DNA of 64,000 bases from Lingula anatina (lineage: Eukaryota; Animalia; Brachiopoda): the NCBI GenBank assembly GCA_051362555.1, contig CM120642.1:27466001-27530000 (forward strand), read 5' to 3'. Numbering within the stretch: position 1 is the first letter of the stretch; each line of letters opens with the position of its first letter. The notes under the pieces were generated by a model, which worked only from the letters and a program-made list of their open reading frames with translations, ran no database searches and had not been told where the DNA came from. Shown in pieces: positions 45,405-54,022 of this stretch. The position numbers were made by a program, and so were the translations under genes.

Positions 45405-46013
45405 ATCTTAGTTGCTTAAGCTGAAAGCAATTTAGCAAGAAAACCCCTTGGAGATGGATCGATCCTGTTAGATTGATCTAGGTATGGGAACCCAGTCAAT
45501 GATAACAGCATGTGAAGGACTCACAAGCCTCATTACGAAACTTTGCTTTTGTCAAAATGGTTTTGAAACAGACAAAACACAATAAAAGCCCCTTTGAGTA
45601 TATCTGGGAGACCCATGTGGTAAATTGTGTCTGGGCTGTGGTTTCCGTTCTCAGATGGCAATGATCTCTATTTTGCCCATGAATGAACTATACACATGTT
45701 CACCATTGTGTAGATTTTGTGATGTTGTCCAACTTTCATGTAATTTTTCATTTTCCCAAACAATCTTCTCCGAAATCTGTTTGATCTATTGGTAAACCAC
45801 TAGAACCCATGGTGGCTGGCAACCAAATCCTGATTTTAACAGTTCATGTCTCTCATTTCCTTTGGTAATTACGAGCTCTCATATATTCTCAGATAAACCA
45901 GTTACGGTTGGGATATTTTGACTGCATGATGGTTTATAAAATTATTATCATCATTATTACCATTATTAATATATAAAACTGTCCAGATCACCCTTGGCAT
46001 AAACAAGCTATTG

Positions 46014-48242
46014 AACAAGGCAGCAAAGCTGTCAAATGTACAGACAAAAAGCAGGAAATAACTATGCACAAAATAGGCTACTGTCAATTCTGATGCAAAA
46101 GTACATTATGTTAAACTGCAAATTCAACATCAAATTTTAATTATGCTCAACAGGTAATACCAATGTAAGTAAAATGTGTAACAAGCATAAGGCTTCAGGC
46201 CCATGGCAGTTCAAGTTCACACTTTGAAAATGAATAACTTCCAGAAAAAGAAGCCAATCAGACTGCTTTTCCAACTCAGGCTGCATTTTAGTCCTGTATT
46301 TCTTTTTTGAACGTTTGGCAATCATCAGTAACATGGTTTTCCCATAATGGTCATCATGGCAGCAGCACCCAAAATTGTGTTTTCTTCTATTCTGATGCAT
46401 TATTACATAATGGTTAACAGCATAATGACCGTCAATTTTTAATAATAAAATATACATATCATGGATTTTCAGAAAATGTGACTAGCATGGGTCTTCAAGC
46501 CCATGGAACTTCAAAGTCACACCTTGAAAATGCCAATATGTGAAAAATTAAATTTTCACAAAAAAAAAAAAACTGTTTAACTAGCAGAAAGAATTACCAA
46601 ACACACTGCATTGCCTACTGAAGCTGTATTTTAGTCCCGTGTTTCTTTCCTGTAAGTTTGAGAACAGTAAGTGACATGATTTTTCTTAAATGGTCATCAT
46701 GGGAGCAGTGCCCAAAATATTTTTTTTCCAAATTTTGATGCAATATTACATAACGTTTAACAGCATAATGACCATCAATTTTTAATGATAAAATATTAGT
46801 ATTATGGATATTCAGAAAATGTGACTAGCAAAGGTCTTCAGGCCCATGGAACTTCAAAGTCACACCTTGAAAATGCCAAAATGTAAACAAGACAGCACTG
46901 TTCTGAAATGGGTGTTTTCCCATTTTTAACAATTTTTTAACATAAAACAAAATTAACAGTTTACTGCCATTTTTATATGATCAACTAAGAAAATTGATGA
47001 GATGTGAAAAATATCAATAGAACAGTGTCAAATGTCCAATTTCCTCCATTCTGAGTTTCTGAACATAGTGAATGATTGAATCTTACAAACTGCAATGATA
47101 TGAGTTTATTTCCATTTTTGAAACTTTATTACACAATACACGATAATAAGTTTACCATCATTTTTACAAAATCAACTAACAATGTTGTAAATATGCAGGA
47201 AATGTCAAACAAACACTTTTACTTATCTTATTAATTAAATAATGAAACTGTCAACATGCCTAAAAATTGAATCTGAGGAAATGTGAAACAAGACAGCACT
47301 ATTCTGAAATGGGTTTATTTCCATTTTTAACACTTTTTTAACATAAAACAAAATTAACAGTTTACTGCCATTTTTATATGATCAACTAAGAAAATTGATG
47401 AGATGTGAAAAATATCAATAGAACAGTGTCAAATGTCCAATTTCCTCCATTCTGAGTTTCTGAACATAGTGAATGATTGAATCTTACAAACTGCAATGAT
47501 ATGAGTTTATTTCCATTTTTGATACCTTATTACACAATACACGATAACAAGTTTACCATCATTTTTACAAAATCAACTAACAATGTTGTAAAGATGCAGG
47601 AAATGTCAAACAAACACTTTTACGTATCTTATTAATTAAATAATGAGACTGTTAACATGCCTAAGAATTGAATCTGAGGAAATGTGAAAAAACAGCATAA
47701 CTTATAAAATAATGGTCCGATTATGCTGATTTTCGAACTTGACCTGCGCTTTAGTAAGATTGATTACTCCTGTGAGTTTCATGACAACAGGCCTATGGGT
47801 TTTCCTTGAAATGTGTTAACAGTGTTGCAAATATGCTGAAAAGTGAAAAAACAGCATAACTACTAAAATAGTGGCCCCATCAAGCCGATTTTCGAACTTG
47901 ATCTGCGTTTTAGTAAGATTGATTACTCCTGTGAGTTTCATGACAACAGGCCTATCAGTTTTCCTTGAAATGTGTTAACAGTGTTGCATATATGCTGAAA
48001 AGTGAAAAAACAGCATAAATTCTACAATAATGGCCCGATCATGCTGATTTTCGAACTTGACCTGCGTTTTATGAATATTCATCAGCTCTGTAAATATAAA
48101 ACCAAAAAGTAAAACTGTCTTCCACTTATGGTGTTAACGCTGAAAGTGCACGGCGACATGATCGGCGACGGCGACGGCGACGGCGACGACAGACGCAGGT
48201 GATGGCAATATGTACAGACACATCTGTGTCTGTACATAAAAA
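46014..48242 (-). mobile_element. Non-autonomous Helentron-type element (HINE/DINE-1-like) with internal tandem arrays, copy 1
   Basis: One end is aacaa-GGCAGCaaaGCTGTC (hairpin) plus subTIR atgtacagaca. The other end is a (GGCGAC)n microsatellite, the palindrome atgtacagacacatctgtgtctgtacat and an A-run. Internal tandem units of about 300-345, about 401 and about 159 bp. No TSD seen. Confidence 0.75.
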
Positions 48243-50330
48243 GGCTAAAATTATTAATGATTGGCTGATTTCATGTTATAAATATAGACATTTCAGCATT
48301 TTTCATGACAAAAAGCAAGTGGAAGAATTTTTCATAGAGACCCATTCTATGGTGAGCAGTGGCATGTTTACAGTTGACTTTTGACTGCTTATCTTGGCAC
48401 AATATTATCACGCCTCCTCTTGTTTCCAACATCCTCACATAATCACCAGCTTCTCTATATACTACTCAATGCCAAGAGGAGGTGTGTTGATCTGATAAAT
48501 TGATTGCATTTAGCGAGAGTCCCCGCAGAGTTTGATCTTCAGTGGGAATAAGCCCTATGTGTACAATATGTTCCAATCATTCCCAGTGCTAGGTTAACTA
48601 AACTTTAAGAATGTGGAACAGCAGAGGGATTAGATAGGCTTCCCAATGTTAGGAAGTGTACTTCCCCCATCTGCCAAGATGGTATGGTTGTAAGCTTAGC
48701 AGTTACAACAGGACTGTAAATGCACCTTCAACATCCAAATAAACTGCATTCTTGGACATACAATAATGTTCCACATTCCTGTGGTCATTTATAACATTTA
48801 ATTTGGTTCTGTTATCACACACACATATTTTGTTTATTTATTTATCCCACCTGTATTGCCCAAAAAAAGATAAACGGTGGGTTAGGCAGTCGACTGGAAT
48901 GCGTCTAGCCAGAGCTGCACACTTTTGTATTAAAACAAGATCAATCAAAATGCACACTATCCTTATTGTCCATGATTACCGTCTGTATTTATTACCTCGT
49001 CAAATGATATATGCGGTACTTGAGGTAAAGGTCGTCATCACTTACAGTATTTATTCTATTTGCAATATATACACAAAATATCTTTTATAGCCTTGTTAAC
49101 TTTTTAATACATGGTACTTAAGTCATAATATTGTTCAACACACATTTGTCTCATTTCGAAATCAAATTTGATTCATGTTATTCACTCTGCATTTATTCTC
49201 TGCCCCTTATTTTCAAGCTGTTATTATTATTATGGCATAATTCAACTCAATTAGGGCCTTTAAAGTTACCGACTCTTTTGTCCAATATCAACAGACTTGA
49301 TATTATTAACACCTCTCTTATGTGAAACATTTTGTTAAGCCTTATCTGACTACATCAGGAGTCTAGGAATAAAACATGTTGAATACACCCTGAGTTTCAG
49401 ACTAGTGACACATCCCAGTTGTCTGAATGTGGGCTGAGATAAAACAAGGCAGCAAAGCTGTCAAATGTACAGACAAAAAACAGGAAATAACTATGCACAA
49501 AATAGGCTACTGTCATTTGTGATGCAAAAGTACATTATGTGAATGATTGAATCTGACAAACTGCAATAATATGAGTTAATTTCCATTTTTGAAACTTTAT
49601 TACACAATACACGATGACAAGTTTACCATCATTTTTACAAAATCAACTAACAATGTTGTAAAGATGCAGGAAATGTCAAACAAACACTTTTATGTATCTT
49701 ATTAATTAAATAATGAAACTGTTAACATGCCTAAGAATTAAATCTGAGGAAATGTGAAAAAACAGCATAACTTCTAAAATAATGGTTTGATCACGCTGAT
49801 TTTTGAACTTGACCTGCGTTTTATGAATATTCATCAGCTCTGTAAATATAAAGCCTAAAAGTAAAACTGGCTTCCATTTATCTTGTTTACAATGAAAGTG
49901 CACGGCGCTGGCGACGGCGATGACGGCGACGACAGAAGCAGGTGATGGCAATATGTACAGACACATCTATATATATTTACTGTACTGTTTGAGAACAGTA
50001 AGTGACATGGTTTTTCTTTAATGGTCATCATGGGAGCAGTGCCCAAAATAGGTTTTTTTCAAATTTTGATGCAATATTACATAATGTTTAACAGCATAAT
50101 GACCATCAATTTTTAATAATAAAATATTAGTATCATGGATATTCAGAAAATGTGACTAGCAAAGGTCTTCAGGCCCATGGAACTTCAAAGTCACAACTTA
50201 AAAATGCCAAAATGTAAACAAGACGGCACTGTTCTGAAATGTTTTTTTCCCATTTTTAACAATTTTTTAACATAAAACAAAATTAAGAGTTTACTGGCAT
50301 ATTTATATGATCAACTAAAAAAATTGATGA

Positions 50331-50723
50331 TAGAGAATAATGAGCATACTGTAGTTTTCATTCAAAGGTAATTGCTTACCAAGAGTACTTAGTCAGATGT
50401 TAGATGTAGCCAAAGGCTATGTTGCATCAGTACTTACCTGGAGAACATGTCATTCTCTATATGCACACTGTGTAGGCCTATATAGTGAATCATTCAGACA
50501 CTGGACTTCACCCTGATAGGAGGTGTGCAGGACTTTTTATACCTGAGGTGACTTTCATTTATTTACATATATAAGTATTTCATGATCTAGTTCTTTATTG
50601 TGTATTTCATATTTTTCCATTTATTATATTACTGAGTTTACTAATAGTTTGTTTGTATGCATTTCAGCCTTCATTGTTTCCAGTTAATAAAGATTGGAAA
50701 TCAAATAGTGTCCATCTTATCTA
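50331..50723 (+). repeat. 5' LTR (TAGAGAA...TTATCTA)
   Basis: Direct repeat of 52001-52393 with no mismatch seen by eye. Contains a TATA-like ctatatag near 50478, a GT-AG intron candidate at 50548-50667 and AATAAA near 50686. Confidence 0.95.
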
Positions 50724-50779
50724 TGAAGGCTCAGGTATGACCATAGTCTACCGGTAAACAGTCCATCCTACAGGCCAGC

Positions 50780-51961
50780 ATGCCAGTTGTAAAGTGCCCA
50801 TTCCCAGACTGCACTTATGAGACAGAAGATGTGGCAGATACCATTGTCAACACACTATTGACAATACATGCACAAAGCCATAATGCCACTTCCTCTCAGT
50901 CATCTACAAAGGTCAAAACTGACAAGATTCGTCGCCCCACAATATCTACAGCTGGTACTAGTGAAGATTGGACTTACTTTCTGACAAGGTGGAAAGAATA
51001 TACCATAGCAACCAAAATTACTGGCCAAGATCGTGTAATACTTGAAGATTGGGGTGTACATCACCGTTTATCATCTGTAGCATTTCCCCACAGCAATTGT
51101 CGCGCTGAAGTTGGTGTCAAAACAGTCAAACGATTGCTTATGAACAATACAGGACCAAATGGTGAGTTGGACACCAATTCAGTGCAGCGTGCAATATTAC
51201 AGTACCGTAATACACCTGATCCAGATACAAAACTGTCCCCTGCAATGTGTATATTTGGAAGGCCAATAAGGGATTTTATTCCAATACTACCAGGTCGATA
51301 CGAACCACATCCTACATGGAAGTCAACATTAGCAGCACGTGAGGAAGCACTCCGTAACAGACATATGAGATCCGCAGATCACTGGAGTGAACACACTAGA
51401 CGCCTACCACCACTTGCTATTGGAGACCACGTTCGTATTCAGAATCAGACTGGTCCGCATCCAAATAAATGGGACAAAACTGGCACTATTACTGAAGTAA
51501 AACAGTTTGACCAGTACCTGGTGAAAGTTGATGGATCTGGACGTGTGACACTACGCAATAGAAAATTCTTAAGGAAATTCATTCCGTATGTGTCATCTCT
51601 ACCTCGTCACTCTATCATTGATGACCTAAAGCACAGATTTTACATACAACAGCCTACAGTCAACAATGACACACCTACATTCAGCAAATTACCAGAACCA
51701 GAATCTACCTTATTGAAAAATTCACATGAGTCAGTGGAGTCGGAAAAAATTGTCACCACAACTCTACCCATAGTACCAAATGAAACTGATGGAAAGTGTA
51801 AAGAAACAGGAACACTACCTTTAACACAACCATCTCATGAAACTCCTAAAGCACTTCCAAAACCACCACGGATGTTAACAAGACTTTTACCACACAACAA
51901 ACCCGGACTAAAGGAATCAAATGAAGGACTACGCAGATCTGTAAGACTAAATAAAAACTAA
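50780..51961 (+). CDS. In-frame Gag(N-term)-integrase(C-term) fusion ORF of the deleted Gypsy element
   Basis: 393 aa. Residues 1-87 are Gag-like (CPFPDC..H..H; [23 protein letters not shown]). From about residue 88 it is the integrase core end ([28 protein letters not shown]; [26 protein letters not shown]) followed by a C-terminal SH3-like region ([10 protein letters not shown]...[20 protein letters not shown]). No protease, RT or RNase H motifs. Confidence 0.85.
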
Positions 51962-52000
51962 CTTTAACCGTCTTTAATGTTTAAAAGACTGGGGGGGGCA

Positions 52001-52393
52001 TAGAGAATAATGAGCATACTGTAGTTTTCATTCAAAGGTAATTGCTTACCAAGAGTACTTAGTCAGATGTTAGATGTAGCCAAAGGCTATGTTGCATCAG
52101 TACTTACCTGGAGAACATGTCATTCTCTATATGCACACTGTGTAGGCCTATATAGTGAATCATTCAGACACTGGACTTCACCCTGATAGGAGGTGTGCAG
52201 GACTTTTTATACCTGAGGTGACTTTCATTTATTTACATATATAAGTATTTCATGATCTAGTTCTTTATTGTGTATTTCATATTTTTCCATTTATTATATT
52301 ACTGAGTTTACTAATAGTTTGTTTGTATGCATTTCAGCCTTCATTGTTTCCAGTTAATAAAGATTGGAAATCAAATAGTGTCCATCTTATCTA
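52001..52393 (+). repeat. 3' LTR
   Basis: Direct repeat of 50331-50723, preceded by the polypurine tract and followed by the TSD GATGA. Confidence 0.95.
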
Positions 52394-54022
52394 GATGAGA
52401 TGGGAAAAATATCAATAAAACAGTGTTAAATGTCCAATTTCTTCCATTCTGAGATTCTGAACATAGTGAATGATTGAATCTGACAAACCGCAATGATATG
52501 AGTTTATTTCCATTTTTGAAACTTTATTACACAATACACAATAACAAGTATACCATCATTTTTACAAAATCAACTAACAATGTTGTGAAGATGCAGGAAA
52601 TGTCAAACAAACACTTTTACGTATCTTCTTAACTAAATAATGAGACTGTTAACATGCCTAAGAATTAAATCTGAGGAAATGTGAAAAAACGGCATAACTT
52701 ATAAAATAATGGCCCGATTATGCTGATTTTCGAACTTGACCTGCGTTTTAGTAAGATTGATTACTCCTGTGAGTTTCATGACAACAGGTCTATCGGTTTT
52801 CCTTGAAATGTGTTAACAGTGTTGCATATATGCTGAAAAGTGAAAAAACAGCATAACTACTAAAATAGTGGCCCGATCATGCCGATTTTCAAACTTGATA
52901 TGTGTTTTAGTAAGATTGATTACTCCTGTGAGTTTCATGACAACAGGCCTATCGGTTTTCCTTGAAATGTGTTAACAGTGTTGCATATATGCTAAAAAGA
53001 GAAAAAACAGCATAAATTTTACAATAATGGCCAGATCATGCTGATTTTCGAACTTGACCTGCGTTTTATGAATATTAGTCAGCTCTGTAAATATAAAGCC
53101 AAAAAATAAAACTGTCTTCCACTTATGGTGTTAACGCTGAAAGTGCACGGCGACATGATCGGCGACGGCGACGGCGACGACAGACGCAGGTGATGGCAAT
53201 ATGTACAGACACATCTGTGTCTGTACATAAAAAAGTTTAAGGGGTTTGTCCAGCTAATCTAAATAGTCCTTGGTCTTAACAAGAGCACCTTTCATTTCTC
53301 TTTGTATTTTTGGTCAAAATGTACCAAGCAAATTTTACCAAGCAAGGGACAGAGGGGGAGAGAAGGAAATCAGAAGTATGTCCTTTGAAACACAGGGTGT
53401 CAGCATTTCATAGACGTCAACCTTCACTGTCTGGTCATGCTTTATCTATCCTTAAATATCAAATCTCTCACACGTCCTTTTTCTTATTAAAACCCATTTG
53501 CTTTTGAATGGGCCACATTTTGTTTAAATGAAAACAGTGACATTCTATAATCTCTTCTCTGAATGCATGTGCAATGCTTTTCTGTTGAAATAATCAGGAA
53601 GTCTAGACACTTTAATTGCTTATGTCTTTGAGTAAAGACGGTTTTTAGATGAAGACCATTGGAAAGGGGAGGACAGTGACTGCCAATCATTATTTTTTAC
53701 AATGACTGAAGATAAATTTTATTTAGGAAGTAGGTATACTGCACCGTAAATCAAGTGAAGAAGAAACGAAACCTGTCTTCAAACCTATTGCTTTGTAACA
53801 CCTAAAAGTGTACTTTTTAAAATTCATTTTGGCTTTCTGCTTTTTAACACCCTCCATATTGCATGGGGTTATTAATCATGGAAGATGTTGCTCAAATCTA
53901 CTTTCAAAATGCAGTTTTTCCATTTATCCTCTCCATATGCCCTGAGTTTCAGAAGAGATTACCTGAAACTAACAACCTCCATGAAACAGCTGTAACAGAG
54001 GTTTTTCTCAAGTAAACTCTAA

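Follow-up and report, generated by a model that had tools for sequence, protein, structure and literature searches.

An LTR retrotransposon of 2.06 kb in Lingula anatina raises the question of how its reverse transcription is primed. The element lies in the 64,000-nt stretch of DNA that we analysed (the window). Reverse transcription of LTR elements initiates from tRNAs, tRNA halves or a contiguous self-primer. The bases after the 5' LTR of this element have no TGG start, and hence lack a feature of tRNA-primed LTR elements; they are the complement of two pieces of the LTR separated by a GT-AG intron. We consider it probable that splicing of this LTR intron makes a continuous RNA primer from which reverse transcription can start without a tRNA.

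The putative primer-binding site (PBS; 50724-50738, like all features here on the forward strand unless stated) matches, exactly and in reverse complement, the sequence obtained when 50539-50547 is joined to 50668-50673, its 15 nt being divided as 9+6. The first segment, which pairs with 50730-50738, is the putative primer's exon-1 arm, and the second, which pairs with 50724-50729, is its exon-2 arm. The 120-nt intron between them (50548-50667), delimited by sequence and by read-depth arithmetic, opens with GT at 50548, closes with CAG at 50665-50667 and contains a branch-like motif at 50639-50645; within the short R/U5 downstream there is an AATAAA (50686-50691) that presumably acts as the polyadenylation signal. 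The preliminary description had placed each of these signals here, and all were borne out. The joined 15-mer has no contiguous occurrence on the forward strand of the window, and without a gap the LTR matches the 30 nt that follow it over at most 9. When any GT-AG pair within the LTR was permitted, none of 1445 random 30-mers from the window reached 15 (the best reached 14, once) and the PBS region, shuffled 1000 times, never exceeded 11. These controls exclude a chance origin of the split match, and the central claim of the description, an LTR retrotransposon whose PBS is the complement of a splice junction in its own LTR, holds.

The boundaries of the element are fixed by empty-site reads, which run from 50330 directly to 52399 onward (83, 144, 886 and 753 reads in four runs). 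Target-site duplications of 5 bp (left, 50326-50330, seen in the sequence and in the empty-site reads; right, 52394-52398) flank two identical LTRs of 393 bp with TA...TA ends (50331-50723 and 52001-52393), and the intron is retained in the 3' LTR at 52218-52337. A G-rich polypurine tract region (PPT; 51983-52000) lies before the 3' LTR, and the same motif precedes the 3' LTR of relatives. The single ORF (ATG at 50780, stop at 51961) fuses the N-terminus of Gag in frame, near 51040, to the C-terminal part of integrase; the copy is internally deleted, with the 5' part of gag and the 3' part of the integrase region but no protease, reverse transcriptase (RT) or RNase H. Because the rest of pol is missing, the window copy needs an autonomous helper, and it is a young non-autonomous gypsy derivative. 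The surrounding DNA (46000-50330 and 52394-53240) belongs to an interspersed repeat of the host; several copies of it lie close by, 159-bp tandem units among them. The U3 of the element carries a further good donor motif on the forward strand and a strong donor motif on the reverse strand (50366-50375 and 50431-50442); a short motif with a similar antisense-donor look is repeated upstream of the primer in relatives whose primer is unsplit.

Pfam found no families in the fused ORF. Used as a query, this ORF retrieved 963 relatives longer than itself, most often made up of one ORF of about 1600 aa; their names include Mytilus, Palaemon, Diadema and Clytia. A search of viral contigs gave no matches. 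Full-length relatives encode protease, RT, RNase H and integrase in gypsy order with a gypsy-type RT, and the best solved structure for a full-length relative was Ty3 Gag-Pol (E 2e-48). The two LTRs, the 5-bp duplication, which falls within the 4-6 bp expected of the group, the PPT and the order PR-RT-RH-IN in the relatives place the element in Ty3/gypsy (Metaviridae). BEL/Pao elements are recognised by BEL/Pao-specific protease and Gag-region Pfam families; membership of that group was rejected, as Pfam showed just RT, RNase H and integrase families and the best structure was Ty3.

We retrieved 102 related loci and examined the 76 with at least 120 nt before gag for a match between PBS and LTR. 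In 56 of the 76, a set that includes many copies of one family and amounts to roughly 35 families, the bases immediately following the LTR match the element's own LTR over a contiguous 10-18 nt, at a site 38-74 nt before the LTR end. The match fell below 10 nt in the other 20, and those inspected were truncated contigs, point-mutated copies, nested insertions and a tandem-repeat locus (L025). Among the LTR pairs shown, 30 of 32 begin with TA. More distant gypsy copies from the same records (L151 and L153) have TGT...ACA ends and a TGG PBS. Judged by these sequences, the clade with TA...TA LTRs looks self-primed like Tf1, and the earlier reading of the window PBS as a non-tRNA site extends across it. 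Twenty-two of the loci (L081-L102) are animal-type retrotransposons within bacterial genome bins and are likely to represent host DNA contaminating those bins; a search of ten contaminated bins yielded one new close element, L149, with an unsplit primer.

This variety bears on whether the primer might be a host tRNA fragment or other small RNA, the LTR match being a relic or a regulatory hairpin. The exon-1 arm has a few letters in common with the 5' end of U1 snRNA, which would suit such a source. The PBS, however, differs from family to family, each matching its own LTR (the only LTR with which it was compared), and single compensatory changes in PBS and LTR separate L043 from L044 and L011 from L014. 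To the missing TGG start can be added that Rfam found nothing at the LTR or PBS (its single weak match, E 1.4, lay elsewhere). On these sequences from the window and its relatives, we regard a host RNA primer as highly improbable. ARAGORN found no tRNAs in the window.

Three layouts were seen among the relatives. In the first, a short LTR has a contiguous match of 13-16 nt beginning at the A of an initiator-like motif, as would be expected by analogy for a Tf1-like 5'-terminal primer. In 17 of 20 such unsplit families (L006, L009, L013, L029, L033, L036, L037, L041, L043, L049, L055, L071, L078, L081, L082, L085 and L089) the PBS continues with a C, while in the LTR a C or T precedes the A; such a C would be consistent with the primer's 5' cap G being paired or copied. 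In the second layout, a pyrimidine tract and AG stand directly before the match, mostly without a donor in the LTR; AG directly preceded the paired stretch in 15 of the 19 candidates tested. Very short LTRs of about 85-135 bp (L001, L010, L022, L026, L060, L074 and L095) contain AATAAA shortly downstream of the primer and, just upstream of it, a branch-like motif, a pyrimidine tract and AG, but no donor; if they have an upstream exon at all, host DNA or sequence preceding the PPT would have to supply it. No donor that extends the pairing was found elsewhere in the element in the short-LTR families that have an acceptor and no donor, and a common spliced-leader end was ruled out for the donor-less families, as the required ends vary between them.

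The third layout has a donor in the LTR whose exon end lengthens the match. It is found in the window element (9+6), in L016/L017/L019 (6+8) and weakly in L091, where 2+10 was read by eye across a GTAAGT donor. A nearby donor extended the pairing by at least 6 in just two of the 19 candidates. Other split matches (L012, 5+10; L066, 3+10; L036, L040, L043 and L081) were left uncounted, their donors lying outside the LTR or not being placeable inside it.

The L016/L017/L019 family is the second to divide its primer, here across a GT-AG intron of 144-147 nt, and its proteins are 58-59% identical to the window's over 249 columns. In a midpoint-rooted FastTree of the window and 58 chosen loci (44 loci were left out as duplicates or for want of a readable PBS) the two split-primer families fall on different branches, the window standing beside intron-less families with a support of 0.56. 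L017 and L019 differ in the interior of the intron and in the upstream U3, yet they are identical in the PBS, in the acceptor region and over 18 nt around the donor. This pattern is one of conservation; the covariation, as read from the sequences, is between this family and that of the window. The exon-2 arm by itself supplies 6 nt in the window and 8 nt in L016/L017/L019, compared with 10-18 nt in unsplit relatives. A second, divergent family thus keeps an LTR intron and conserved splice signals, but most related families are unsplit: they retain the complementarity of PBS and LTR and lack the intron, which is in part an outcome that the preliminary description gave as refuting. In both split-primer families an initiator-like pyrimidine-A motif is found exactly 9 nt before the donor (window, 50539; L017, about 799), and if it were the true start site the first exon would be 9 nt long.

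Splicing was looked for in polyA RNA. Nine runs from the same species were found and six (X1-X4, X7 and X8) were examined; about 6% of the X1-X4 reads were sampled and 30 reads were placed on the element in a binned analysis, with 15-nt bins aligned to the intron ends and splicing deduced from bin arithmetic. Neither read placement gave a junction row at a level of at least 3 reads. In X1 the bin 50533-50547 has a sense depth of 2.87; the next seven bins, up to 50652, are empty, the bin 50653-50667 has 0.13, and the depth is 1 from there on; the 0.13 corresponds to two bases, the AG common to the end of exon 1 and the acceptor. These bins fit one 151-nt read covering 50509-50545 and 50666-50779 (the sum was checked), whose mate continues in gag. 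The X2 bins fit two further spanning reads beside two unspliced reads, with a depth of 0 after 50547, and X4 has two unspliced reads and a further read ending at 50547. Altogether, three inferred spanning reads and three that stop at 50547 are found among the 30. Splicing from 50547 to 50668 appears to occur, incompletely: the junction reads that the preliminary description called for are deduced at the predicted ends, in company with unspliced reads in X2, X4, X7 and X8. The deduced spliced read beginning at 50509 is in keeping with a transcript start upstream of 50539, and suggests that at least one spliced RNA begins no later than 50509 and has the PBS on the same molecule.

The X7 and X8 reads, which are unstranded and derive from divergent copies, read through the intron at depths of about 16 and 6. 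Among the rows listed for these copies (there were 47 further rows), ten substitutions fall in the intron, one of which affects the branch-like motif; the primer arms and the PBS have none. This divergent subfamily is relevant to the proposal that the split match arose by chance or incidentally, when a recent insertion of 120 nt that happened to be spliceable broke up a formerly contiguous primer in a decaying family. The contiguous 12-18 nt primers of the nearest branch and the single window copy found as DNA speak for this proposal. Against it, the divergent subfamily also has the insert, with listed changes in the intron and none among those listed in the arms or PBS, and a second family conserves a split primer. 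Both of the identical LTRs carry the insert and the target duplication is intact, so the copy must have been reverse transcribed recently with the insert in place. A mere insertion is quite improbable on this evidence.

The folding predictions are less one-sided. In the spliced leader all 15 pairs form with a probability of about 1.0, and the junction-PBS helix, with 15 predicted Watson-Crick pairs (18 with flanking A:U and G:U), has a computed energy of -30.3 kcal/mol; either unspliced half gives -17.4 or -15.8 kcal/mol. In the unspliced leader all 15 pairs are also predicted, around a looped-out intron, with a probability of about 0.6-0.7 for starts upstream of 50539 (0.62-0.68 for the exon-1 arm with starts at 50331-50509), and the exon-1 arm of unspliced L017 is likewise predicted to pair. 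The claim that the primer is present only after splicing is thus not established, and self-priming could occur from unspliced RNA, the PBS pairing both exon ends in a three-way junction. Splicing would then have another role, in expression or in defining the terminal exon for the nearby AATAAA, and the PBS might hold the two splice sites together or mask them. Unspliced reads exist, many short-LTR relatives have a pyrimidine tract and AG before the primer without a donor in the LTR, and a motif resembling a 5' splice site overlaps the PBS at 50732-50740, all of which would suit this arrangement. On the other side, the arms abut GT and AG to the base in two distant families, a precision that a looped-out insert would not need, and the spliced helix is computed to be about 13 kcal/mol more stable. 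Moreover, if transcription starts at 50539 the exon-1 arm hardly pairs in unspliced RNA (0.03). Priming from unspliced RNA is the chief alternative, but on balance an unlikely one.

Some reads end at the last base of the PBS. Seven reads cover 50728-50738 and five of them stop at 50738 (three from X4 and two from X2). In the three X4 reads the next 17 letters match 50522-50538 in reverse complement, after which the reads diverge from the window; within the window the letters beyond the 17 have chance-level matches only. Another acceptor (AG), upstream of the primer exon, may lie at 50521-50522, as suggested solely by this point of departure. Molecules of this kind need a PBS paired with the exon-1 arm and then extended by reverse transcriptase. 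Three origins are conceivable: plus-strand strong-stop DNA in which copying of the primer went on beyond the PBS, transcription of a copy of this kind of product that had integrated, or fold-back from library preparation. The PBS/exon-1 duplex can therefore form and be extended, which implies neither splicing nor a cellular origin. Exactly 50686-50721 is covered by antisense reads, 4 from X1, 2 from X3 and 1 from X2, and those from X1 pass by way of 12 additional letters to 51181 (segment 51094-51181). These probably come from a rearranged genomic copy. The end that they share lies 2 nt inside the LTR end.

For priming by the spliced RNA we propose the following circuit. The PBS is, as its sequence shows, the complement of the end of exon 1 plus the start of exon 2, and the few reads available suggest that sense polyA transcripts from the 5' LTR are spliced from 50547 to 50668 and continue through the PBS. 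The junction is predicted to pair with the PBS as a single helix; by analogy with Tf1, RNase H from the helper would cut after 50673 and RT would copy the 50 nt of U5-R back to about 50674. Strand transfer would use the short R near AATAAA, and the intron would be inherited from an unspliced 3' LTR. Plus-strand synthesis would copy the primer back into the PBS, so that primer and PBS would stay in step as families diverge. The primer might act in cis or be supplied in trans by a spliced transcript of the 3' LTR or of a solo LTR. Incomplete splicing, an intron-less nearest branch and the looped-out pairing in the unspliced leader count against a splice-made primer, as does the 5' extension of 30 nt or more on at least one spliced RNA, unlike the 5'-terminal primer of Tf1; the retention of unspliced 3' LTRs is left unexplained by the mechanism. 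The fullest version of the proposal, in which the host spliceosome assembles the primer in an aquatic-animal gypsy lineage, only correctly spliced 5' LTRs are copied, an unspliced 3' LTR passes the intron on and the reads from PBS to antisense exon 1 are captured primer copies, seems to us evenly balanced between true and false.

Self-priming itself is known (Tf1/sushi, Tcn1, TAR); what sets the window element apart is a putative primer divided by an intron. In Tf1 the PBS pairs with the initial 11 bases, and RNase H cleaves between bases 11 and 12 (PMC7175516), and the same self-priming has been proposed for Tj1 (PMC4600332). Like the window element, Tf1, Tf2 and Tj1 of fission yeasts, in the Tf1/sushi group, have a PBS right after the 5' LTR that complements their own LTR transcript, and no tRNA site. 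The window element differs from that group in its putative 15-nt primer split by a spliceosomal intron and in its TA...TA LTR ends; it lacks a contiguous 5'-terminal primer of 11 or so bases, and one deduced spliced read starts at 50509. Its unsplit relatives may have such a Tf1-type primer, since their match begins at an initiator-like A. A chromodomain at the end of integrase is typical of chromoviruses. In a further difference from Tf1/sushi, none was found among the Pfam matches (E 0.01) of three full-length relatives (P0004, P0001 and P0010). In plants, self-priming has been predicted from PBS-LTR complementarity for Tcn1 (gypsy) and TAR/Houba/Osr-1 (copia) (PMC6317226); hosts and lineages are different there, and the excerpts of that paper mention no primer intron.

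The Mag lineage's C-clade (SURL) and other marine-invertebrate gypsy clades likewise have a single gag-pol ORF and marine invertebrate hosts. The Mag C LTRs are set apart by their TGT...ACA ends (PMC3601003, Table 3) from the TA...TA seen here. Troyka comprises LTR elements of aquatic animals that likewise have ends other than TG/CA, in that case CG...CG with 3-bp duplications (PMC12440569), compared with TA...TA and 5 bp here. Identity with Mag C or Troyka was thus ruled out by the LTR ends and, for Troyka, also by the duplication length. In excerpts, two papers on marine-invertebrate gypsy elements (PMC6238403 and PMC8556966) have no mention of PBS or primer, and these two and PMC8220671 do not describe a splice-built primer. 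The open full-text literature, a scope that excludes Repbase Reports and most subscription journals, yielded no description of a splice-built primer, in agreement with the preliminary description, which knew of no element working this way; nor did it yield a self-primed animal gypsy clade with TA...TA ends. Repbase entries mention self-primed gypsy families in invertebrates.

Elements of this large clade, by their TA...TA ends and their PBS, would escape tools that demand TG...CA ends and a tRNA match. A splice-built primer also poses a puzzle, for one LTR must be spliced while the identical other LTR must not. If such a primer is indeed used, it would represent another route to the initiation of reverse transcription, one that ties the copying of the element to nuclear RNA processing and that would provide a control point for the host or for the element.
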